Shown here piece after piece: positions 1,451 through 35,293 of a DNA stretch of 35,293 nucleotides (position 1 is the stretch's first letter; each line of letters starts with the position of its first letter). The stretch lies in the IMG/VR virus record IMGVR_UViG_2778261341_000005, one strand, 5' to 3'. The notes under the pieces were generated by a model, which had not been told where the DNA came from, did no database searches, and saw only the letters and a list, made by a program, of their open reading frames with translations. This DNA is from a virus (lineage: Duplodnaviria > Heunggongvirae > Uroviricota > Caudoviricetes). The translations under genes were made by a program, and so were the position numbers.

Positions 1451-1533
1451 TTGTGACTTTTGTGTGAGGGTGCGACTTTCGACCGAACCTTTGGCAACCG
1501 GATAGCGGGGGCTTTCACCCCCGCTGCGGTTTC

Positions 1534-1674
1534 TTACGGTTTACACTGCAAGAACGCCGCAAATTCTGACCACATGATGTTAAGTCTGAACTCACACGGA
1601 GAACGGTGTATCATCCAGACGGTCAACAACATGGTTAAGCATAAAATGCTCACGATGATCGTTTTTTGCGGCAT
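1534..1674 (-). CDS. Hok/Gef-family type I toxin, copy 1 (46 aa)
   Basis: Minus-strand ATG with AAGGAG Shine-Dalgarno; product MPQKTIIVSILCLTMLLTVWMIHRSPCEFRLNIMWSEFAAFLQCKP: one TM helix then a C-E-F-R ... E-F-A-A-F block as in Hok/Gef. Six substitutions relative to copy 2 without frame disruption. Below the 60-aa track threshold. Confidence 0.7.
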   Translation of the reverse strand: MPQKTIIVSILCLTMLLTVWMIHRSPCEFRLNIMWSEFAAFLQCKP

Positions 1675-1715
1675 AGCGCTTGACTCCTTTTACAGGGAGG
1701 CGCTAACCTTCCACT

Positions 1716-1775
1716 TGTCTAGGGTAGGAAGGGTTAGGCCTCGGGTTAAACAAATGTTTTACTCGGGGCCTTTCC
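1716..1775 (+). ncRNA. putative Sok-like antisense RNA, unit 1 (boundaries approximate)
   Basis: Plus-strand TTGACT (1680-1685) and TAACCT (1704-1709) promoter-like hexamers antisense to the hok leader, then ggccucggg ... cucggggcc hairpin plus UUU. Confidence 0.3.
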
Positions 1776-1891
1776 ACATCCGGCCTTCAGGTATTCCTTC
1801 CAGCCGTCAGCCGAAAGGCACCCGCATGTAATTTACTGATTTCCCTTTGTGTGCGCAATGCTCAGTATTGAAGCTGTTGAGGGGAGACGGC

Positions 1892-1916
1892 AAAAAAAAG
1901 CCCGCATATTGCGGGC
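1892..1916 (-). terminator. intrinsic terminator ending the hok unit-2 transcript
   Basis: gcccgca-tat-tgcgggc hairpin preceded on the plus strand by A8, i.e. followed by U8 on the minus strand. Confidence 0.55.
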
Positions 1917-2006
1917 AATGAAGTCAGTACGCTAACCCAAAAGGGTGCCATATCAGCCGAACCCGGCAACCGGATAGCGGGGGGCTTTCACCCCCGCTGC
2001 GGTTTC

Positions 2007-2147
2007 TTACTGTTTACACTGCAAGAACGCCGCAAATTCTGACCACATGATGTTAAGCCTGAACTCACACGGTGAGTTGTGTATCATCCAGACAATCATC
2101 AAAATAGTTATGCATAAAATGCTCACTATGATCGTTTTTTGCGGCAT
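2007..2147 (-). CDS. Hok/Gef-family type I toxin, copy 2 (46 aa)
   Basis: Translated codon by codon from the sequence: MPQKTIIVSILCITILMIVWMIHNSPCEFRLNIMWSEFAAFLQCKQ; AAGGAG 10 nt upstream of ATG; TAA stop at 2007-2009. Confidence 0.72.
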   Translation of the reverse strand: MPQKTIIVSILCITILMIVWMIHNSPCEFRLNIMWSEFAAFLQCKQ

Positions 2148-2188
2148 AGCGCTTGACTCCTTTTACAGGGAGGCGCTAACCTTCCACT

Positions 2189-2248
2189 TGCTTAGGGTAG
2201 ATGGTCAGGGCCTCGGGTTAACATTAAAGTTGACTCCGGGGCCTTTCC
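2189..2248 (+). ncRNA. putative Sok-like antisense RNA, unit 2 (boundaries approximate)
   Basis: TTGACT 2153-2158, TAACCT 2177-2182; hairpin 2209-2243 (ggccucgg / ccggggcc with a G-U pair) followed by UUUCC. Confidence 0.3.
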
Positions 2249-2364
2249 ACATCCGGCCTTCAGGTATTCCTTCCAGTCGTCAGCCGAAAGGCACCCGCAT
2301 GTAATTTACTGATTTCCCTTTGTGTGCGCAATGCTCAGTATTGAAGCTGTTGAGGGGAGACGGC

Positions 2365-2389
2365 AAAAAAAAGCCCGCATATTGCGGGC
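2365..2389 (-). terminator. intrinsic terminator ending the hok unit-3 transcript
   Basis: Identical hairpin plus A8/T8 tract, 473 bp from the unit-2 copy. Confidence 0.55.
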
Positions 2390-2479
2390 AATGAAGTCAG
2401 TACGCTAACCCAAAAGGGTGCCATATCAGCCGAACCCGGCAACCGGATAGCGGGGGGCTTTCACCCCCGCTGCGGTTTC

Positions 2480-2620
2480 TTACTGTTTACACTGCAAGAA
2501 CGCCGCAAATTCTGACCACATGATGTTAAGCCTGAACTCACACGGTGAGTTGTGTATCATCCAGACAATCATCAAAATAGTTATGCATAAAATGCTCACT
2601 ATGATCGTTTTTTGCGGCAT
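2480..2620 (-). CDS. Hok/Gef-family type I toxin, copy 3 (46 aa)
   Basis: Nucleotide-identical to copy 2 over the ORF (shifted by 473 bp). Its upstream promoter differs from copies 1-2 but keeps TTGCAC-N17-TAAATT on the minus strand (~2776-2806). Confidence 0.68.
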   Translation of the reverse strand: MPQKTIIVSILCITILMIVWMIHNSPCEFRLNIMWSEFAAFLQCKQ

Positions 2621-2661
2621 AGCGCTTGACTCCTTTTACAGGGAGGCGCTAACCTTCCACT

Positions 2662-2718
2662 TGTCAGGTAGGAAGTGTCAGGGCCTCGGGTTAACGTTAG
2701 TTGACTCGGGGCCTTTTC
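2662..2718 (+). ncRNA. putative Sok-like antisense RNA, unit 3 (boundaries approximate)
   Basis: Same promoter hexamers as unit 2 shifted by 473 bp; hairpin 2682-2713 with a different, shorter loop than units 1-2. Confidence 0.28.
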
Positions 2719-2775
2719 ACATCCGGCCTTCAGGTATTCCTTCCAGCCGTCAGCCGAAAGGCACCCGCGCGTAAT

Positions 2776-3440
2776 TTACCTTTTACGTCCGTTACGTGCA
2801 ACGGATGACGTGGCTGTTTTTCCTTCCCCTTCGCCATCCTTTTTCGGAGCAGTTGTGCAAAAGTGTGCAAAAGTGATTTTTGCTGCCACTCCCCGCCAGG
2901 CCGCGCCAGTTCTGGCTTTCCTGATTTTTTCGTTTTCGTCGTCGGATCCTTTTTCAGATCTTCGATCGTGACGTAATTTTAAAAATCTCTTGTTATTCAG
3001 TGCATTAAATTTTTTCGGGATCCTCAGAAAGCCGGAGTTTTTGCACACTTTTGCAAAACCTTGCACAAAGTGCAAAACCATTCAGAAGGGAAAACCTCAG
3101 TAATGGCGCGCCCTGGCGGGGTGTTTTGCACCCATTTCGATTTGCAAAATTTATCGTACACAAATACCGGAGGCGTGTGCGGGGTAGCGCCGATTACGTC
3201 ACTTTACGCGTTACGTCGCCCCCGAAAATTTCCGGCCATTTGCGGCGATTCTGGGGCGCAGAAATCGTTTTCTGATGTCAGGGGATCGAATCGGGCCGGC
3301 GGGGTTATCTCTTCGTTACGTGGCGTTACGTGACGTTTTACGCGGGGATTACGTGGGGCGTTTCGTCCATCTTTTTTTCTGCTGCGGGTGGTTTTTTCGT
3401 GGTGGGTGATGTCCGGTGATGAATATTTTTTATTGTCGTG
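2776..3440. promoter_or_regulatory. non-coding block with operator-like and iteron-like repeat arrays (function unknown; possible att or regulatory region)
   Basis: No convincing ORF. Inverted copies of tgcaaaagtgtgcaaaa at ~2861-2884 and ~3040-3060 flank an AT-rich GATC-containing spacer; palindrome TTGCACaaaGTGCAA at 3061-3075; further TTGCA half-sites at ~3124 and ~3141. Direct (c)gTTACGTg repeats cluster at 2786-2806, 3193-3220 and 3314-3356. Confidence 0.35.
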
Positions 3441-25555: not shown

Positions 25556-25972
25556 TTATGGTCTTTGTTGTCTGCGTGATTGTCTGCTGGCGGTTGAATT
25601 CACATAGCGGGCAATTGCTGCTTTGCGGTTAATCAATGCCAGTGTTCTGGTCAGTTCTGCGTTGTGTTTGTGTGCCTGCTCTTCGTGGTACTGCCGCATG
25701 ATTTTTCCGGCAGGCGTGAGCGGCTCCGGCTCCCCGGGCGGACGGCGCGGACGAACGGCGACAAGCCAGCTGCGGTTAGTGCTGTCCGGTCGTCCGTTGA
25801 GTATGTCGGTGATGATGGTCGTGGTGGTTCTGTCGGGGCTGACGACCGTGATTTCCAGCTCGTCGCCCGGTTGTGGTCTCGTGGCAATGTTGTTCAGGGG
25901 CAGTAAGGGCGTGCGCTGGCGCATCATTTCGTCAAATTGCCGGTGCTGCATGCTGCAATAAAAGCGGGTCAT
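25556..25972 (-). CDS. hypothetical protein (138 aa) downstream of A
   Basis: Start overlaps the A stop (translational coupling). Confidence 0.45.
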   Translation of the reverse strand: MTRFYCSMQHRQFDEMMRQRTPLLPLNNIATRPQPGDELEITVVSPDRTTTTIITDILNGRPDSTNRSWLVAVRPRRPPGEPEPLTPAGKIMRQYHEEQAHKHNAELTRTLALINRKAAIARYVNSTASRQSRRQQRP

Positions 25973-28497
25973 TGTGGCGCCTCCGTATTCGGTGCGGGGG
26001 TGATATCAATGCGGCGGGTGCTGTCATTCCAGTACGCGGTGCGTCCGTCAGCCAGGCGAACGCGGGCACCGTGACGGACGGAAACGACGGCGCTTTCATG
26101 CAGATGCACGCCCAGCGCATTGAGCTCGCGGGTGATTTGTGCGGTGATGTGTGGTTCAGAGGTCAGAGCGACACTCACGCGAACGCCGCCAGCGGGCGCA
26201 CTGATGCCGCCGTTTTTCACGGTTTCCGTGTCAGGTGGCAGGTTTTTCAGCTGCCTGGTGAGTTGTTTTCGCTCTGTGGGGGTCAGTGACCTTAACCATT
26301 CACCCAAATCACCTTCCGGCAGGGTAAGTCGCTGCTCCCTGCGTCCGTCCGGCTGCCTTTCTGGCGGGTCGTTTATGGTCAGATTCTGGTCAGGGGGACA
26401 GTTATTGCCACGAGTCCAAGGTGCGGCAAAGCCGCACTCAACGTCAAAACCCTCGTCCGTGCGGTCTTCGTTTTCCGGCTTACGTCTGACCAGTTTCCAG
26501 GTGTCCGGGTGGGTGCATATGGTGTAGCGCTCCCCGAGTGACGGGGCGCGGACGCCGTAAATGCGTTGCGGGAATTCGCCGTAGTCGTTGGCCTCTTCGG
26601 CAGTTTCGTATGCGGTGCGGACCAGGTACGTGTTGCGGGGAATGAGCACACCACCCTGGCGGGTGATATATGTGGCAAAACATCCCACGTCGGCGGCGGC
26701 CAGTATGGCGTCAATGTCGTCATGGTCCAGACGCTGCGGGACAGCCGGGTTACGGGCCATCTGCCCGGCAAGGCGGCGGAGTTCTCGCCATACCTGGCGG
26801 GGAGGGATACCGAAGAACTGGAACTGGCGGATGCGGTGAAGGGCCGCCCAGCCGATGGCGTTCTCCACGGTTTCGGCCATGGTTTTGCCTGATTCCTTAT
26901 CGACGTAAGGTTTGCCGGTTTTCGGGTCATTCCCCATGAAGGCGCTGGCGTCCAGGTTCTTACCGATATAGGTCGCGATATAGCTCGCCGGTGTGCCTTT
27001 TGCCGGGTCGATTTTTTCGCATTTAAAACGCGGGGAGATATCATCACCCAGCTCTGCGCGGTCCTCCCTGATGGCGGCGTTGCGCATGATTTCAGTGATA
27101 CGGGCTTCGTTTTCCGGGCTGGTGAATACCAGCATGTGCCAGTGCGGTGTACCGTCGTGGTGGGGCTCCACGGTGCGCACGCCGTACCAGCCCAGCCCGG
27201 CCTTGTTGATGGCCCTGCGGACGGCGGCGAAAAAGCGGTAAACCAGATAATCACTGGCATCACGTACCGTTGCTCCGCAGTATTTCGGGTTCAGGCTGCC
27301 GTCATCGTTCACGCTGTGAAAACGGGAAGGGGCTGTGACGGTGACGAAAAACGCCAGGTCGCCGCGTGCTTCGGCGACCTGCTCCATTCCCCGGACGCAG
27401 GCCATCATCTCGTTACGGCGGTTACGCGGATTAGAGAGACCTGCCCAGTAGATATCCTCAAGGCTGAACCGTTCTCCCTCTTCGTTCTCGATGTCCCAGG
27501 CCTTCAGAAAATCGCGGGTGCGCTGGCGTTTTTCGCGCCAGTCCAGTAACGCTTCATGGCTGATATATACCGATGTCTTACGTGACACCAGACCTGCGGC
27601 GCGTAACAGCTCTTCACGCCAGATGTCCCGGAGGTGTCTTAACTGACTGTTCCACCATGTCGCACAGGAAAGGCGCATGACCGCACCCGGCACCTGTTCC
27701 GGGTCGGGGGCGGTGCGGCGGTCGGGTCTGATTTCCAGCGACGGCCAGCAGGGTGGCGTGATACCCAGTTTTAACGCCATGTGTGCCAGTGGCTGGTAGG
27801 TCAGTAACCAGGTGAACAGGTCATCGTCACCCCTGCCGGTCTTTTCGATGACCTCATCACATGCGCGCTCCAGTGCGGCGGAAAACGCGGTGGCGGTCAG
27901 GGTGGCAAGGCGCTGGATTTCGTCACGGCTCAGCTGCGGCAGCATAAGCAGTTCATCCAGCCGTTCGCGGGCGGCGGTGGCCTTAAAGGCCGGGGTGGCA
28001 AAGCGTTCATTCACACGGGCGATACGTTTCAGGCGGGCACGCAGCCCGTGACGAACGAAGTTATCCGCCGCGTATGCGCTGTTGTTCTTAAGCCCTTCCC
28101 GGCGTGCGCTCTCCTGTTTGCGGCTCAGGCGTGCCAGGTCCCGGATGAGCGGACCGGCAAGAAACGGCGGCAGGGCGCGCAGCTCTGCCATGGCTTCAGA
28201 TACCAGCGTGGGTGGATTTTCGCGTTTGTGCCGCGCCAGTTTTTCCAGCCTGATCCGACGCTCTTCGTCGTGGTGAAGATGCGAATTAATTCGCTTGCCT
28301 TCGTCTGTGTTTGTCAGGAAGTCGACGGTCTCTTCATCCAGTCTTGCATCAATGCGAATGTCTTCGTTGATGTAGCTCTGAATGGCCTGGCGCAATGCGG
28401 TTGGTTGCGCTCTGCCGAATGTTTCAGGATCGATAACCGGTAGCGGGGCGTTCCACGGGTACGCCAGTTGTGCGTTATGGTCGCTCATGCGTCGCAC
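25969..28497 (-). CDS. replication initiation protein A (HUH rolling-circle endonuclease, P2 gpA family)
   Basis: 842 aa; HUH motif (HHDGTPHWHMLVF) and twin-tyrosine motif (YIATYIGKN). Confidence 0.9.
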   Translation of the reverse strand: MRRMSDHNAQLAYPWNAPLPVIDPETFGRAQPTALRQAIQSYINEDIRIDARLDEETVDFLTNTDEGKRINSHLHHDEERRIRLEKLARHKRENPPTLVSEAMAELRALPPFLAGPLIRDLARLSRKQESARREGLKNNSAYAADNFVRHGLRARLKRIARVNERFATPAFKATAARERLDELLMLPQLSRDEIQRLATLTATAFSAALERACDEVIEKTGRGDDDLFTWLLTYQPLAHMALKLGITPPCWPSLEIRPDRRTAPDPEQVPGAVMRLSCATWWNSQLRHLRDIWREELLRAAGLVSRKTSVYISHEALLDWREKRQRTRDFLKAWDIENEEGERFSLEDIYWAGLSNPRNRRNEMMACVRGMEQVAEARGDLAFFVTVTAPSRFHSVNDDGSLNPKYCGATVRDASDYLVYRFFAAVRRAINKAGLGWYGVRTVEPHHDGTPHWHMLVFTSPENEARITEIMRNAAIREDRAELGDDISPRFKCEKIDPAKGTPASYIATYIGKNLDASAFMGNDPKTGKPYVDKESGKTMAETVENAIGWAALHRIRQFQFFGIPPRQVWRELRRLAGQMARNPAVPQRLDHDDIDAILAAADVGCFATYITRQGGVLIPRNTYLVRTAYETAEEANDYGEFPQRIYGVRAPSLGERYTICTHPDTWKLVRRKPENEDRTDEGFDVECGFAAPWTRGNNCPPDQNLTINDPPERQPDGRREQRLTLPEGDLGEWLRSLTPTERKQLTRQLKNLPPDTETVKNGGISAPAGGVRVSVALTSEPHITAQITRELNALGVHLHESAVVSVRHGARVRLADGRTAYWNDSTRRIDITPAPNTEAPQ

Positions 28498-29197: not shown

Positions 29198-29376
29198 GGT
29201 GTTTGGCCTCTTGTAGTAAGTTCTGAAAACTCACCATCCAGAGCTGCGAAACAGTGGGTGGCGAGACGTACGAGGTTCGCAGTACCGGCTACAAGAGATC
29301 CCGGCCCGACCGAAGTCGGCCCCGTACGCCCCGCCATAATTCTGACGCGAAAAAGACGTGGCGATACAGTACGCAC

Positions 29377-29397
29377 AAAAAAACCGCTGGCGCGGTT
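29377..29397 (-). terminator. intrinsic terminator inside the early region (putative)
   Basis: Plus strand aaaaaaa + accgctggcgcggt: read on the minus strand a GC hairpin followed by T7. Confidence 0.4.
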
Positions 29398-29519
29398 GTG
29401 CGCTCTTGTAGTCGGCAGGCTGCGAAACCCGGCACCCGTTTTATGAGGTGCAGCGGGAATGTAACCTGACTGATTGCGGCATGGCAAGCGGTTTTTTTGT
29501 GTGTGCATGTTCTGGTTTC

Positions 29520-30359: not shown

Positions 30360-30574
30360 GCCCCTCTGATGGCCGTTACTTCGCGAACGGTACTGGCAAT
30401 CGCGGTGATTTGTGTTCCGTCAGCCAGATGGATGTAGAGATAATCAGCGTCTGACGGGCACGGCGTGGTCGTTGTGATCAAATGACTTTCCACCATGAAC
30501 TCGTGGCCCACGGCATCGGTGAAACGCGTCAGCATGGTGGCGGTAAATATGCTGTTCATCGACCTGCCCCTCAC
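30317..30574 (-). CDS. hypothetical early protein (about 80-85 aa)
   Basis: ORF in operon context; start uncertain. Confidence 0.35.
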   Translation of the reverse strand: MRGRSMNSIFTATMLTRFTDAVGHEFMVESHLITTTTPCPSDADYLYIHLADGTQITAIASTVREVTAIRGAWKSETQAHGELRP

Positions 30575-30849
30575 GCTGAAAACTGGCCGGACTGTGTCCG
30601 GAGTTCTGCCAGTTCGCGCTCGAGGCGCAGGTTTTTCATATAGAGTTCACTGATGGTCTGTTTTGCTGTCACCATTGCCATGCTTTGCATTTGCAGGGCC
30701 ATGTAGGTGGCAAAATGCTTGTCTTTATCTATTTCTGATATTCTTTCATCCAGTACATTGGTTATTTCAGTCAGCGTTTTTTGCGTAAATTCAATATGCG
30801 CCGGGTCGGTAAATAGTTTGTTTATTTCTGTAGGTGTATTGATGCTCAT
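30571..30849 (-). CDS. hypothetical early protein (92 aa, coiled-coil-like)
   Basis: ORF in operon context; no motif. Confidence 0.4.
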   Translation of the reverse strand: MSINTPTEINKLFTDPAHIEFTQKTLTEITNVLDERISEIDKDKHFATYMALQMQSMAMVTAKQTISELYMKNLRLERELAELRTQSGQFSA

Positions 30850-30928
30850 AGCTGTTTCTCCGTTTCTGGATTGAGTGAAGCCCTCCGCAGATGCGGATGG
30901 TTTTAATGTTTTCTGTCCGGTTGGTTAT

Positions 30929-31054
30929 TTATTTACGGCGTTCTTCGCCAGTAAATAAAGATTCGATATTTTTCAGCGCTTCGATAATTCGCATAATGCC
31001 AATCGCCATAAGCACGGAAATAATCAGAATCACCCATGAAAGAAATACGCTCAT
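30929..31054 (-). CDS. small membrane peptide (41 aa), putative
   Basis: ATG overlaps the TGA of the upstream gene (ATGA); product MSVFLSWVILIISVLMAIGIMRIIEALKNIESLFTGEERRK (one TM helix plus charged tail); below track threshold. Confidence 0.35.
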   Translation of the reverse strand: MSVFLSWVILIISVLMAIGIMRIIEALKNIESLFTGEERRK

Positions 31055-31293
31055 GCTGCATTCCCAAGTGCGTATGGCTCAATATGTACTCCGCATTCTG
31101 CATCACGAACAAGCTCAGACAGCTCATTGAGAGCATCCAGATCGTCAGCGTAAAAAGCTGCATCATACAGGCTGCGAATTGCTCTGGTCAGTGAGTCTCT
31201 TGCTGCATGTTCTGCGGCAACTCCTGACATACTCAGGCGAAAGTTAAAGCGCTCAAGGGCTTTATTGATGAGAACCTTATATTCTTTGTCCAT
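31051..31293 (-). CDS. hypothetical early protein (80 aa)
   Basis: ORF in operon context. Confidence 0.4.
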   Translation of the reverse strand: MDKEYKVLINKALERFNFRLSMSGVAAEHAARDSLTRAIRSLYDAAFYADDLDALNELSELVRDAECGVHIEPYALGNAA

Positions 31294-31313
31294 TGTATTT
31301 CCCCGGAAAACAA

Positions 31314-31568
31314 TTAAACAAAATCGCTTAATGATTTACCTGATTCAATCTTCTCTATCGTGTCTTCAATAGCCATGTATGCGGCGTAATCGCCTGCGAG
31401 GTCGGCGCATTTCTGTAGCCCCTGTAATGCGCTGATGATATCTTCTTTTGCTTCCCATAAAGGTTTTGCTGTATTTAGTGCATTACGGGCATTATTAGCT
31501 ATGAGCCGGTGTATGATAATTGTGTAGGCTGATGCTATCTCTGCCATGTCTTTTGTCGTTGTTGCCAT
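31314..31568 (-). CDS. hypothetical early protein (84 aa)
   Basis: ORF in operon context. Confidence 0.4.
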   Translation of the reverse strand: MATTTKDMAEIASAYTIIIHRLIANNARNALNTAKPLWEAKEDIISALQGLQKCADLAGDYAAYMAIEDTIEKIESGKSLSDFV

Positions 31569-31571
31569 GTA

Positions 31572-31907
31572 TTAATTCCCCCATGGATGCTGAAAACTGC
31601 GACCGCTGATTAACCGGTCTGCCGTTCTTAATGCTTCGTGCAGGGTGAAATCCTGCCCGAACTGCTCATCTCCGCGAGTCAGGGAGTAACAGGTATTTCC
31701 GGTAATCGGGTTGCGTGCGCCTCTGTGTATGACAATTCCGGCATCATTAATCAGCCAGGTGTGTTTACCGGTTTGTTTAACCAGATGCCCGTCAGGTGTG
31801 GCGTGCGTTTCCTGCAGGCTGTAGTGCGAGTTGCTGCGTGATGCGCTGGTTGAGAAACGGTTAGCGTGGCGTTCTGTTCCGGTGCGGAAGCTGCGTCTCT
31901 GTGTCAT
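31572..31907 (-). CDS. hypothetical early protein (111 aa), first gene after the 31908-32015 promoter/operator region
   Basis: Upstream intergenic region carries palindrome ccacgc-ccggc-gcgtgg. Confidence 0.4.
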   Translation of the reverse strand: MTQRRSFRTGTERHANRFSTSASRSNSHYSLQETHATPDGHLVKQTGKHTWLINDAGIVIHRGARNPITGNTCYSLTRGDEQFGQDFTLHEALRTADRLISGRSFQHPWGN

Positions 31908-32015
31908 ATCGGAAAACCCCGTTTAAGTTAAATGAAAATCAGTGCCGGGATGTTTAACCACGCCCGGCGCGTGGTATTCTGGTGTTTCCACACAACCAGA
32001 AAAAAGGTAACTAAC

Positions 32016-32339
32016 ATGATTGATAAAAGCGTTAAGGACGCTATCACTGAATACCTGGTTAGCATTTACACAACTAATCTTGCTGTGGCTCCTGTTGATA
32101 AGTTGACCGACCCAAGAGACTCAGTGGGAGTGGTGTCCGATCTGCTTATTTCGCTCCTCATTAGCGAACTTCCCGATGATAAAAGGGATGCATTGATGAA
32201 AACTGCGTCAGAAATTTTGCGTCAGATAGAGGGGCAACAAGCCTTTGCTCCCTATGCCGTGAATATAAGGACACGCTTTCATAGTATTAATCATCTTGCG
32301 TGCTTTATTCGCGCCTCTAAAGACAAACCAGATCTCTGA
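32016..32339 (+). CDS. hypothetical protein (107 aa), AT-rich cargo cassette
   Basis: Start placed at ATG 32016; convergent with and overlapping the 3' end of the 172-aa gene; no motif. Confidence 0.4.
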   Translation: MIDKSVKDAITEYLVSIYTTNLAVAPVDKLTDPRDSVGVVSDLLISLLISELPDDKRDALMKTASEILRQIEGQQAFAPYAVNIRTRFHSINHLACFIRASKDKPDL

Positions 32340-33257: not shown

Positions 33258-33782
33258 TCACCGTTCGTTTACATCCTGGCTCTGTTCCAGCTTTGACTTT
33301 CTGCCTTTGTAAACCCGTTTTCCATTGACGGTCTGGCAATCTTCCTTATCAGCCGGGGTAAACTTTCTTTTCTGGCGGTCGTATGTCCAGTAGCTTTTCC
33401 AGTTGTGCCATTCTGGTGGCTCGCATTCCGGGAGTTCGTCGGCCAGCTTGTCCCACTCTCTGACGTTAAACCACCAAACACCATCCGAATTCTCATCTTC
33501 AGGGTTTGAGCGGGTTTTATGCCCTGGCATCTGGTTACGCTGAAGAGCTGCGCGTAATGCTGTTTTTGTTAATCCGATGTAGGCGGCCCCTTTTTCAAGT
33601 GAGCAAAGCCCGGCTATTGGGCCATCTAGCCGCAGGGTTGCCCCTTTTTTATATGTGCGCTGTGGCTTTTGTTCGTCGTTGTTATCTGTTGCTTCTTGTT
33701 GACTGGTATCGGCGTTGATGTACGCCGCTCCAGTTGTGTGATCGGTGTCAGATAACTCTTTATCGGCAATGAAGTCCCGCAT
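33258..33782 (-). CDS. Cox/Apl-like excisionase-regulator (HTH), extended form; true start uncertain
   Basis: Core ATLRLDGPIAGLCSLEKGAAYIGLTKTALRAALQRNQMPG ... DGVWWFNVREWD aligns with P2 Cox (VTLMTDAIPYQEFAKLIGKSTGAVRRMIDKGKLP ... EYWVYLPAWN); divergent from the C repressor gene. Confidence 0.5.
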   Translation of the reverse strand: MRDFIADKELSDTDHTTGAAYINADTSQQEATDNNDEQKPQRTYKKGATLRLDGPIAGLCSLEKGAAYIGLTKTALRAALQRNQMPGHKTRSNPEDENSDGVWWFNVREWDKLADELPECEPPEWHNWKSYWTYDRQKRKFTPADKEDCQTVNGKRVYKGRKSKLEQSQDVNER

Positions 33783-33883
33783 TTGTTATCCTCTCGCACA
33801 GGTGCGCCTATTGCACCTTATGAAGGTTTGTTTTGGTTTGTTTAATGTCGAAATTACGACACTTTTGCGAGGATTTTAGTGGT
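33783..33883. promoter_or_regulatory. immunity switch region between cox-like and C genes (putative early and repressor promoters/operators)
   Basis: Position between divergent Cox-like and C genes; contains GCAC-N2-GTGC and a further TTGCACC repeat. Confidence 0.4.
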
Positions 33884-34231
33884 ATGAATTCGACACTGTC
33901 AATAAGTATCGGTGAAAAAATCTTGATGATCCGGAAAAGTGAGAGGCTTACAAGGAAGCAATTCTTTGAGCTTACAGGGATTCCTGTTAATACGCAGAGG
34001 TATTACGAAACGGGAAGGCAAGATGGAATCGGAAGTGAGATCTTATTAAAGATCACAAAAAATTTACGTTTTAAAAAATATGCACTTTGGTTAACAACTG
34101 ATGAAACGTTTGAAGCTGGGGGTCAAATTGCCCCGGCTCTCTCTCTTGATGGATCTTCTCAGTCGGAGGGCGATCTGGCTTCAATCGACGTTACCCAAAA
34201 ATCATCCCGATCAGGCCGCAATGCTGGCTGA
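33884..34231 (+). CDS. immunity repressor (P2 C-type, HTH)
   Basis: From ATG 33884 (GAGGA Shine-Dalgarno): MNSTLSISIGEKILMIRKSERLTRKQFFELTGIPVNTQRYYETGRQ ... GGQIAPALSLDG closely parallels P2 C (EKIVLMRKSEYLSRQQLADLTGVP...YYESGR...SGQIAPALAHFG). Confidence 0.8.
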   Translation: MNSTLSISIGEKILMIRKSERLTRKQFFELTGIPVNTQRYYETGRQDGIGSEILLKITKNLRFKKYALWLTTDETFEAGGQIAPALSLDGSSQSEGDLASIDVTQKSSRSGRNAG

Positions 34232-34300
34232 CGTTACACATCGAGCGGGTTTCATCCCGCAGGGAGTGTTTGGTTAATTTATCCGTTGGAGGGGCTAATC

Positions 34301-35293
34301 ATGTCGATTAAGCAACTCAAAGACGGACGTTATAAGGTTGATGTAAGGCCACAAGGGACGGAAGGAAAGCGGATTCGTAAGATTTTTACCCTGAAGTCAA
34401 AGGCGCAGGAGTTTGAAAGGTATGTTTTGCAGAATTTTCATGATAAGCCATGGCAGGCTAAGCCAGCAGATCAGCGTCGGTTATCCGAACTGATAGAGGC
34501 CTGGTGGTTGCTTGATGGTCGTAACCAGGATTACGGGGATACCTACAGGGTCAGACTGGAAAAGATAAACCGTGAGATGGGTGATCCTCGTGCCAGTCAG
34601 ATGACGCGAAAATTTATGCTCGGGTACCGGTCCGACAAATTACAGGCCGGGTTAATGCCTTCCAGCATTAACCGCGATTTGTGTGCCTTGTCTGCAATGT
34701 TCAGCTCGCTGATTGAGGGTGAGGTGTTCCATAACGAAAACCCGGTTCGGGGAATACGTAAGCTGAAAGTCAGGAACACAGAGATGGCCTTTCTTTCAGA
34801 TGAGGAGATTGAACGACTGCTTGAACGACTCGATGGAGATGCGCGGCGTGTTGCCATTCTGTGTCTTTCCACGGGGGCAAGGTGGGGCGAAGCAGCTGGT
34901 TTACGTGGGGAACATATTGTAGGTAACCGCGTGATGTTCTTTAACACCAAGAACGGAAAATCTCGCGCCGTTCCCGTTTCTGATGCGGTACTTGCGTTAA
35001 TTAAAACCCGCAGAACCGGATTGTTGTACCAGGCTGATTACCTCAGATTTCGGGAGATCCTTCAGGAGGTGAAGCCGGACTTGCCGAAAGGGCAGGCCAC
35101 CCATGTCATGCGTCATACATTCGCTACACATTTCATGATGAATGGCGGAAATATCGTTACGCTACAACGAATCCTGGGCCATGCCACGATTCAACAAACG
35201 ATGACGTATGCGCATTTTTCGCCGGACTTTTTACAGGATGCAATCAGCTTTAATCCGCTGGCTGAAAGTGTCCATAAACTGTCCATCGATTAG
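34301..35293 (+). CDS. int: tyrosine integrase (P2 Int family)
   Basis: MSIKQLKDGRYKVDVRPQGTEGKRIRKIF ... ILCLSTGARWGEAAGL ... HVMRHTFATHFMMNGGNIVTLQRILGH ... YAHFSP matches P2 Int blocks including the catalytic R..H..R..Y region; stop is the last codon of the window. Confidence 0.93.
   Translation: MSIKQLKDGRYKVDVRPQGTEGKRIRKIFTLKSKAQEFERYVLQNFHDKPWQAKPADQRRLSELIEAWWLLDGRNQDYGDTYRVRLEKINREMGDPRASQMTRKFMLGYRSDKLQAGLMPSSINRDLCALSAMFSSLIEGEVFHNENPVRGIRKLKVRNTEMAFLSDEEIERLLERLDGDARRVAILCLSTGARWGEAAGLRGEHIVGNRVMFFNTKNGKSRAVPVSDAVLALIKTRRTGLLYQADYLRFREILQEVKPDLPKGQATHVMRHTFATHFMMNGGNIVTLQRILGHATIQQTMTYAHFSPDFLQDAISFNPLAESVHKLSID

Follow-up and report, generated by a model that had tools for sequence, protein, structure and literature searches.

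The window, by which we mean the whole stretch of 35,293 nucleotides that was analysed, contains on its minus strand a 41-codon open reading frame that begins with ATG and encodes MSVFLSWVILIISVLMAIGIMRIIEALKNIESLFTGEERRK (Table 1). Its start codon overlaps the stop codon of an 80-aa gene upstream in the tetranucleotide ATGA, and a 77-aa open reading frame, which lies in a different frame and shares 116 nt with the same upstream gene, also runs through the locus. An earlier note on this DNA had described both frames and had taken the shorter one, opening at the ATGA, for an early gene encoding a membrane peptide; both frames are present as described, and the overlap with the 80-aa gene is not only present in the window but conserved in its relatives. 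The 80-aa product is a DUF4754 family protein, matching positions 1-80 of the 80 positions of Pfam PF15946 with 146.3 bits against a gathering cut-off of 27.

The element carrying these genes is a P88-like E. coli prophage (Xuanwuvirus, Peduoviridae, P2-family). A region of 1.2 kb around the peptide gene matches 17 complete E. coli genomes and, at lower identity, P88-like phages of Escherichia and Citrobacter. As judged from the sequence, the gene order corresponds to that of a P2-type early operon: a Pe-like promoter, a Cox-type gene and replication gene A share the strand of the peptide gene, as the placement in the early operon proposed earlier demands. The counterpart of the Cox-type gene in one related locus (L001) has the same length (174 aa) and is named as a member of the Cox family. 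Downstream of the peptide gene follow several small genes, a MarR-type wHTH gene and an Ead/Ea22-like gene, and then gene A. The immediate surroundings are variable among related loci, with an upstream gene of 84, 90 or 92 aa being present or absent and the downstream gene differing. P2-type switches keep the cox-side early operon repressed in the lysogenic state. If the present operon follows P2, the early transcript carrying the peptide gene would presumably begin at the Pe-like promoter upstream of cox, and the peptide would appear upon infection or induction but be absent from the repressed lysogen. With its place between cox and gene A, the gene is outside the late genes, and no family match assigns it to the holins or other lysis proteins.

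Table 1. Features at and around the peptide gene (positions refer to the window)
Feature	Position	Strand	Basis or remark
Integrase	34286-35293	opposite to early operon	
Pe-like sigma-70 promoter, TTGACA-18-TAAAAT	33873..33902	-	11/12 consensus; upstream of cox
Cox-type gene	33258-33782	-	Phage_Cox E=3e-6, 27.4 bits vs cut-off 27.5
DUF4761 gene	31572-31907	-	
84-aa gene	31314-31568	-	upstream of DUF4754
DUF4754 family protein, 80 aa	31051..31293	-	Pfam PF15946 E=3.2e-43
77-aa alternative-frame ORF, judged not to be a gene	30933..31166	-	stops, dN/dS, unannotated in relatives
Weak Shine-Dalgarno-like GGGAA	31061..31065	-	6 nt before ATG, in last DUF4754 codons
ATGA stop/start overlap	31051..31054	-	peptide ATG 31054-31052, DUF4754 TGA 31053-31051
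Gene for 41-aa small protein, predicted membrane protein	30929..31054	-	ORF list, relatives, selection
Predicted transmembrane helix, codons 3-21, VFLSWVILIISVLMAIGIM	30992..31048	-	19-residue Kyte-Doolittle mean 2.74, AF2
Juxtamembrane R22 and predicted amphipathic helix, codons 22-36, RIIEALKNIESLFTG	30947..30991	-	hydrophobic moment
Hairpin, 5-bp stem and 4-nt loop, sense RNA UCCGC-AUCU-GCGGA then GG	30884..30897	-	covariation
Replication gene A (gpA)	25969-28497	-	same strand as peptide gene

Taken by itself, the 41-aa frame is no more than would be expected by chance from its hydropathy and size. The whole window holds 212 ATG-initiated open reading frames of at least 35 aa, and eight of these reach a mean Kyte-Doolittle hydropathy of at least 2.5 over 19 residues. 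The verdict that we are dealing with a real gene is therefore based on its conservation in relatives, and not on hydrophobicity. We approached these relatives from both members of the gene pair. When loci were collected through DUF4754 (ten annotated or genome loci and 80 IMG/VR contigs), the ATGA and an intact peptide frame were found in 90 of 91 cases, and the sole exception (L008) is an assembly that is frameshifted in DUF4754 too. When the peptide served as the query, all 80 IMG/VR loci retained the ATGA and the intact frame; here, the upstream open reading frame measures 79-81 aa except for three cut by contig ends, and two loci in which an additional in-frame ATG makes it longer. In total, approximately 170 related loci keep the ATGA, and all but the one frameshifted assembly combine it with an intact frame of 37 or 41 codons. 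The same arrangement is retained in five further, more diverged lineages recovered by profile search and contig look-up, whose upstream protein is only 30-55% identical to that of the window; diverged lineages of this kind include L091, L095, L096 and L097. The peptide remains 51-100% identical where identity of the upstream gene falls to 31-44%.

The pattern of substitution within these sequences is that of a coding region, and it is confined to one frame. Across the first 37 codons of 40 distinct nucleotide versions, 19, 11 and 27 of the 37 sites vary at codon positions one, two and three, respectively. The pooled dN/dS of the peptide frame is 0.25 and none of the 40 versions contains a stop, whereas four other frames (two sense and two antisense) show ratios of 1.14-1.41 and stops in 39 or 40 of the 40. 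The antisense frame of the same phase has a dN/dS of 0.30 because it mirrors the peptide frame through shared third positions, and it is interrupted in 28 of 40 versions. Raw pN/pS values between the window and six separate lineages range from 0.30 to 0.49, at a pS of about 0.55-0.60. A few relatives carry a C-terminus that is frameshifted (45 aa) or truncated (30 aa); therefore, either the last 8-10 residues are dispensable, or the prophages concerned are decaying.

The 77-aa frame behaves differently. It carries stops in 39 of the 40 distinct related sequences and has a dN/dS of 1.15, and only the lineage of the window itself has it open over the stretch of the first 37 codons. It is annotated in none of the related records inspected, Pfam provides no match near the gathering score (the best being SAA at E=0.11), and PHROG and NCBIfam return none. 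Several database 'proteins' of 103-116 aa run from DUF4754 into this alternative frame. These fused entries are frameshifted, mostly stem from Logan assemblies, and in several cases switch frame twice; we treat them as assembly errors rather than as real proteins. One could still argue that the 41-aa frame is untranslated, the conserved entity being an element at the nucleotide level or the 77-aa frame being the real gene, given that hydrophobic small frames do arise by chance in the window, that the 77-aa frame is open there, and that the fused entries extend into it; yet the excess of third-position variation and the low dN/dS are seen only in the 41-aa frame, the peptide varies by conservative exchanges among hydrophobic residues, and no Rfam family covers the region, so that we consider this reading scarcely credible. 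The earlier note had proposed that its gene call would fall if related phages disrupted the 41-aa frame and conserved the alternative one. The relatives show the reverse, keeping the former and breaking the latter. Comparative evidence thus identifies the 41-aa frame as a genuine protein-coding gene, whose product is predicted to be a tiny, single-helix membrane protein, and indicates that the mechanical ORF track misassigns the locus by reporting a spurious 77-aa frame in place of the gene.

Contrary to what the earlier note had implied, the gene is not new to the databases. The exact 41-aa sequence is RefSeq entry WP_000110304.1 and also has GenBank and UniRef entries. In E. coli N51, WP_000110304.1 is annotated at the equivalent place as a CDS of 126 nt for a 'hypothetical protein' with a 4-nt overlap with DUF4754, and an E. 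coli genome bearing this protein is 99.4% identical to the window over the 1.2-kb query. More distant E. coli prophages likewise have a CDS of 37 or 41 aa in this position, and overall the gene has been called by PGAP as well as by phage annotators. The counterpart in Escherichia phage P88, gp07 (YP_009113050.1, 37 aa), is labelled 'membrane protein', that of vB_EcoM-569R5 'putative membrane protein'; WP_000021656.1 is a further relative, and some entries are named 'Prophage membrane protein'. The window sequence is the representative of a 47-member cluster present on at least 1000 contigs, and the 37-aa form belongs to a cluster of 183 members from E. coli, Shigella and Salmonella, again on at least 1000 contigs. 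Sequence relatives with 78-98% identity to the window peptide were found as well. The gene is thus already known to databases, only as a hypothetical or prophage membrane protein. A literature search with DUF4754, the accessions and strings of the peptide yielded no mention of either protein, and the gene is not taken up in the P88 genome paper.

By similarity and position, the peptide belongs to the P88 gp07/WP_000110304 family, which is uncurated and has no Pfam or NCBIfam model. A tblastn search with the peptide reached P88-like phages at E=2e-9, and the P88 region itself aligned with 63% identity (E=6e-9); in a global alignment, the 37-aa P88 form and the window peptide are 61% identical. 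Like its counterpart, P88 gp07 follows directly after DUF4754, shares the ATGA overlap and has the same hairpin downstream. It differs in stopping at codon 37, whereas the window allele adds E-R-R-K. Similarity ends at the borders of this family. A profile search with the peptide against 1.84 billion representative proteins returned 14 hits, all of them members of the family or its frameshifted versions and with E-values reaching 1.7e-24 to 1e-10, and detected no distant relatives; tblastn against phages gave no hit beyond the family either. The peptide has no Pfam family, its only NCBIfam similarity is to a TatA-like transmembrane segment (E=0.11), and its only PHROG match is phrog_5315 (E=0.045), to which no function is assigned.

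How might translation of such a small gene be initiated? The Shine-Dalgarno-like GGGAA preceding the start codon is weak. Its predicted duplex with the anti-SD sequence has an energy of -4.2 kcal/mol, whereas the local background averages -2.6 and has its 10th percentile at -6.1. At the same spot, other lineages carry GAGGAG (L091), AAGGGGA (L095) or GGTGGTGG, although the C-termini of the upstream proteins encoded there differ (LGNAA, IEELA, IEGET or LTVVA). An SD-like, purine- or G-rich stretch is hence kept across lineages despite the differing ends of the upstream protein. The same-strand overlap of stop and start codon is itself conserved, being found in approximately 170 loci and at least six allele classes of DUF4754. 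The combination of a weak Shine-Dalgarno sequence and an invariant ATGA would fit coupling by termination and reinitiation. Most likely, ribosomes that finish DUF4754 would reinitiate at the ATG of the peptide and thereby link the synthesis of the two proteins, as suggested by the anatomy of the junction and its conservation. Given the weak Shine-Dalgarno sequence of the window, the expression level of the peptide is uncertain.

The predicted product is simple in outline. The hydrophobic segment, starting at residue 3, ranks among the most hydrophobic stretches of the window, and AF2, run with a shallow family alignment, models one continuous helix over residues 2-39 (pLDDT 83) with block means of 89-95 across residues 1-30. 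Hydrophobicity, charge distribution and the modelled helix therefore agree with the single transmembrane helix and charged tail that had been proposed from the sequence. Among 49 distinct full-length peptides, M1, S6, W7, G19, I24 and F34 are invariant and L10, I11, A17, I23 and I30 nearly so. Within residues 3-21, the only changes exchange one hydrophobic residue for another or one small residue for another (S13/A13), and residue 22 is basic in 46 of the 49 variants. With a hydrophobic stretch that could span the bilayer and is under purifying selection, the peptide would take its place among the small (at most 50 aa) single-pass membrane proteins.

The segment following the membrane helix also bears signs of constraint. 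For residues 22-36, the hydrophobic moment amounts to 0.50-0.61. Positions 23, 24, 27, 30 and 33/34, which are apolar, are conserved, whereas the polar ones (25, 26, 29 and 32) vary, a pattern pointing to an amphipathic helix with a constrained apolar face. The extreme C-terminus appears to be the least constrained part of the peptide, and its last four residues, E-R-R-K, are missing from the 37-aa alleles of the P88 type. Only Met-Ser precedes the membrane helix, and the tail carries five K/R and four D/E in the 41-aa form and four K/R and two D/E in the 37-aa form. Membrane helices are oriented by charge according to the positive-inside rule. On this basis, we predict a single-pass inner-membrane protein with an N-out/C-in topology: the Met-Ser N-terminus would face the periplasm, the transmembrane helix would span residues ~3-21, R22 would mark the cytoplasmic face of the membrane, and the amphipathic helix (22-36) and a basic tail would extend into the cytoplasm.

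Several small inner-membrane regulators of E. coli, such as AcrZ, MgrB, MgtS, PmrR and CydX, act by binding larger membrane proteins. Similar to these, the peptide is shorter than 50 aa and has one transmembrane helix with a short polar tail; in contrast to them, it is phage-borne and encoded by an overlapping gene in an early operon, and there is no sequence relationship. A second point of reference is provided by DicB and YdfD of Qin and by Kil of lambda, small proteins from prophage early or immunity regions that act on membrane or division proteins of the host. The peptide shares with this group, whose members are not needed for virion production, its small size and its origin in the early region of a temperate phage, and it may likewise act on a host protein. 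It has no homology to any of them, and DicB and Kil are soluble, whereas the peptide is predicted to be embedded in the membrane.

With moderate confidence, we favor an explanation in which the peptide is the product of a genuine, translationally coupled early gene, resides in the membrane with an N-out/C-in orientation, and may serve as a modulator. As to how it would do so, we tentatively suggest, by analogy with the small regulators above, that the conserved helix packs against a larger inner-membrane protein or complex of host or phage and modulates it. The packing surface could be formed by the invariant S6, W7 and G19 together with the small residues at positions 13 and 17, and the hydrophobic face of the cytoplasmic helix would rest on the membrane or on the partner. 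Modulation of this kind would fall in early lytic development.

The relationship between the peptide and DUF4754 is relevant for any functional proposal. Wherever the open reading frame upstream of the peptide is complete, it is a DUF4754-like gene of 79-81 aa. Within this fixed arrangement, however, the two partners do not diverge together: measured against the window, the identities of DUF4754 and peptide correlate negatively across 63 distinct pairs (r=-0.43). In the P88 type, the peptide is 61% and DUF4754 84% identical, and in two other loci (L108 and L110) a 78-80% identical peptide follows an upstream gene of 31-32% identity. The most instructive case is L101, in which an identical peptide stands behind a DUF4754-like protein of 42% identity. 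At the nucleotide level, L101 and the window are 97-98% identical over 32000-31585 and again over 31059-30301, and only about 50% identical in between. We conclude from this pattern that a cassette composed of the 84-aa gene and DUF4754 has been replaced, with the right breakpoint 5 nt before the ATG of the peptide. To judge from these exchanges, the peptide is the constant component of the pair and DUF4754 the exchangeable one. Two further searches concerned the cassette genes themselves. A weak hit to a shared PHROG raised the possibility that the 84-aa gene is a paralogue of DUF4754, which we rejected on the basis of a 3% probability in hhalign. A scan of genome contigs with a single DUF4754 sequence returned one locus, labelled Vagococcus.

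These observations bear directly on the idea that the peptide is a membrane anchor or an obligate partner of DUF4754. Here, DUF4754 would be tethered to the inner membrane by the amphipathic helix, the two proteins would act there as a pair, and coupled translation would supply them in fixed proportion. Strict co-occurrence and the ATGA in every sampled lineage, including those collected through the peptide, would be expected for such a pair, which stays together while the flanking genes vary, and the peptide's cytoplasmic helix has a conserved hydrophobic face. Yet the two proteins show no co-divergence, and the L101 exchange left an identical peptide next to a strongly altered DUF4754. Re-assortment of alleles therefore weakens the case for an allele-specific complex between DUF4754 and the peptide; contact through a conserved surface would still be possible. 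Moreover, AF2 confidently (pLDDT 91) folds DUF4754 on its own into a self-contained bundle of three helices plus an extended C-terminal tail, and this model has no informative structural neighbors: Foldseek against the PDB returned generic helical bundles only (E>1), and PDB sequence searches with DUF4754 and the peptide profile gave nothing below E=0.2. On balance, we regard the anchor as doubtful.

A soluble gene upstream of a small, very hydrophobic peptide with a 4-nt overlap is also reminiscent of toxins and their neutralizers. According to this scenario, the peptide would damage or depolarize the membrane, resulting in host shut-off or abortive killing, and DUF4754 would restrain it, in loose resemblance to GhoS/GhoT or to type II toxin-antitoxin operons whose stop and start codons overlap. 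In GhoST, a soluble partner gene likewise lies upstream of a membrane peptide, and GhoT, Hok, TisB and Ldr resemble our peptide in being very small and hydrophobic. In addition, the deeply diverged, exchangeable DUF4754 alleles in prophages that are otherwise 97-98% identical form a pattern similar to that of conflict systems. Against this scenario, the pair is part of a long, multi-gene early operon, and the peptide has no dedicated promoter, antisense RNA or long structured leader of its own, which sets it apart from GhoS/GhoT and from Hok, TisB and Ldr; eight promoter-like sites were found there compared with 6.3 expected from shuffled sequence, none scoring above 9/12. That DUF4754 alleles re-assort freely with a single peptide allele speaks against a specific antidote pairing, and Pfam, NCBIfam and PADLOC revealed no toxin or antitoxin family. 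A toxic pair of this design is thus improbable. We also considered the established toxin-antitoxin classes individually. A type I system of the Hok/TisB/Ldr kind was rejected since the gene is embedded in an operon, lacks its own promoter and matches no Rfam antisense family; specifically, the two plus-strand promoter-like sites inside the gene score only 9/12, a chance frequency. A pair of type II or type V was rejected as well, as Pfam, NCBIfam and PADLOC contain no matching toxin or antitoxin domain or defence model.

The earlier note had suggested a role in superinfection exclusion or host takeover. No match from our sequence, family and defence-system searches links the peptide to either, and PADLOC reported no defence system for the peptide or DUF4754. 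An exclusion factor would block entry of incoming phage DNA at the inner membrane, and a small inner-membrane protein of a temperate phage fits this general description. T4 Imm, HK97 gp15 and P22 SieA are phage membrane proteins that mediate superinfection exclusion, and each comprises at least 83 aa; Imm is expressed early in infection, and the examples from temperate phages are expressed from the prophage. The peptide is likewise phage-encoded and predicted to lie in the inner membrane, and Imm shares its presumed early timing. It is, however, smaller than these proteins, shows no similarity to a known exclusion protein or defence model, and is encoded in an early lytic operon. Protection by a resting lysogen is unlikely because the gene lies in the repressor-controlled, cox-side early operon. 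The hotspots that hold P2-family defence genes are located outside the early operon. One account of P2-family phages (PMC9122126) describes their defence cargo in dedicated hotspots, which also argues against an exclusion gene at the present position. We therefore rate superinfection exclusion as highly improbable. Exclusion or takeover early in lytic growth is possible, and early-lytic action is compatible with our findings.

A last element of the locus lies beyond the peptide gene. The hairpin listed in Table 1 lies 31 nt past the peptide stop and is shared by all related loci, even though different genes come next. Among 29 distinct versions, 99.3% of cells are paired, compared with 36-63% in slid controls. 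Two of the five pairs show compensatory changes from C-G to U-A, and the two single changes are G-U and U-G wobbles, which allow pairing on the sense strand only. No U-run accompanies the hairpin on the sense strand; it occurs only once in the window and has no match among the Rfam families. Two other RNAs, a C4 antisense RNA (29254-29341) and isrK (29377-29451), are identified by Rfam on the minus strand in a more distal part of the operon.

What does the membrane peptide favored here add to the biology of these phages? In the first place, it is one more conserved small protein with a predicted membrane helix in the early region of a prophage family, and this family is widespread among E. coli, Shigella, Salmonella and Citrobacter. 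As such, it holds nothing surprising for the specialist and opens no long-standing question. Small membrane proteins of phage early operons are, at the same time, a poorly explored class, for which a phenotype would be useful. The more interesting leads are the swapping of DUF4754 alleles against a constant peptide and the covarying hairpin at the boundary. Together, they might suggest that DUF4754 and the peptide constitute an undescribed two-part early module, in which a constant membrane effector is co-translated with a rapidly exchanged soluble component providing specificity or counteraction, and which is delimited by an RNA hairpin. We consider this module rather unlikely at present. If it were true, the cassette swap ending 5 nt before the ATG would be the footprint of an arms race, DUF4754 would set specificity or counteract a factor of the host or of a competitor, and the boundary hairpin would process or stabilize the early mRNA.

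The intergenic region downstream of the gene for the 41-aa membrane peptide contains a conserved RNA hairpin, which lies 31 nt past the peptide stop codon and is retained in all related loci despite a differing next gene. Two of the five pairs in the stem show compensatory changes, and the wobble changes preserve pairing on the sense strand only. An A-rich run (at about 30898-30915) lies with the hairpin. The sense strand carries no U-run at this site, and a search of the hairpin against Rfam returned no match. The hairpin could act in processing or stabilising the mRNA, or it could be bound by a protein.

On the other side of the peptide gene, a whole cassette has been exchanged. Compared with L101, a related prophage that is 97-98% identical to the window outside of this segment, window positions 31060-31584 (the 84-aa gene and DUF4754) are swapped for a DUF4754-like gene of 42% identity (L101:1227-1495), with one breakpoint where DUF4761 ends and the other 5 nt upstream of the peptide ATG. 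DUF4754 circulates as six or more deeply diverged allele classes, which re-assort with the peptide alleles. The 84-aa gene is missing in several related lineages (L091, L095, and L101) and weakly matches a PHROG that is also matched by DUF4754 (E=0.077); however, a relationship as DUF4754 paralogue was not demonstrable, given a profile comparison probability of only 3%.

Database records of these genes include two anomalies. The locus L010 (NZ_JBQPOM010000071.1), a 226-kb contig titled Vagococcus sp. WN89Y, from a genome labelled as this Gram-positive genus, carries a DUF4754 gene of 85% identity together with the P88-type peptide and an enterobacterial-type flank; this assembly is likely contaminated or mislabelled. 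Public collections, mostly Logan assemblies, also hold 'DUF4754' proteins of 103-116 aa (P0029, P0034, P0035, P0037, P0043, P0046, P0048, P0049, and others), in which a frameshift fuses DUF4754 to the alternative frame and sometimes leads back into the peptide frame. Such fusions seem to stem from indel errors and not from genuine variation.

Additional open reading frames were found in the window. The 45-aa ORF ends 20 nt upstream of the DUF4761 start and is overlapped by a plus-strand ORF (31932-32339), part of which is annotated by PGAP in a related genome (window-equivalent 32015-32209). In PADLOC, the 92-aa gene has weak matches to PDC-M64B (E=4.6e-4) and to PDC-M64C (E=2.5e-3), both of them candidate components of defence systems. 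The tandem repeat contains two identical 46-aa hydrophobic ORFs (starts 2147 and 2620, minus strand).

Features of the window and their positions
Feature	Coordinates	Strand	Details
Tandem direct repeat	1507-2780		3 copies, 473-bp spacing, 91-100% identity
C4 antisense RNA	29254-29341	-	Rfam gathering-level match, 81 bits
isrK Hfq-binding RNA	29377-29451	-	Rfam gathering-level match, 65.5 bits
92-aa gene	30571-30849	-	3' of hairpin
Hairpin	30884-30897	- (sense RNA)	UCCGC-NNNN-GCGGA, then GG
84-aa gene	31314-31568	-	between DUF4761 and DUF4754
45-aa ORF	31928-32065	- (early-operon strand)	very hydrophobic; 19-residue Kyte-Doolittle mean 2.69

Two known RNA families, C4 and isrK, are also matched within the early operon, in the stretch that separates the Ead/Ea22-like gene from the genes upstream of the replication gene gpA. 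These matches suggest that a P2-family prophage carries an antisense immunity element of the P1/P7 type.
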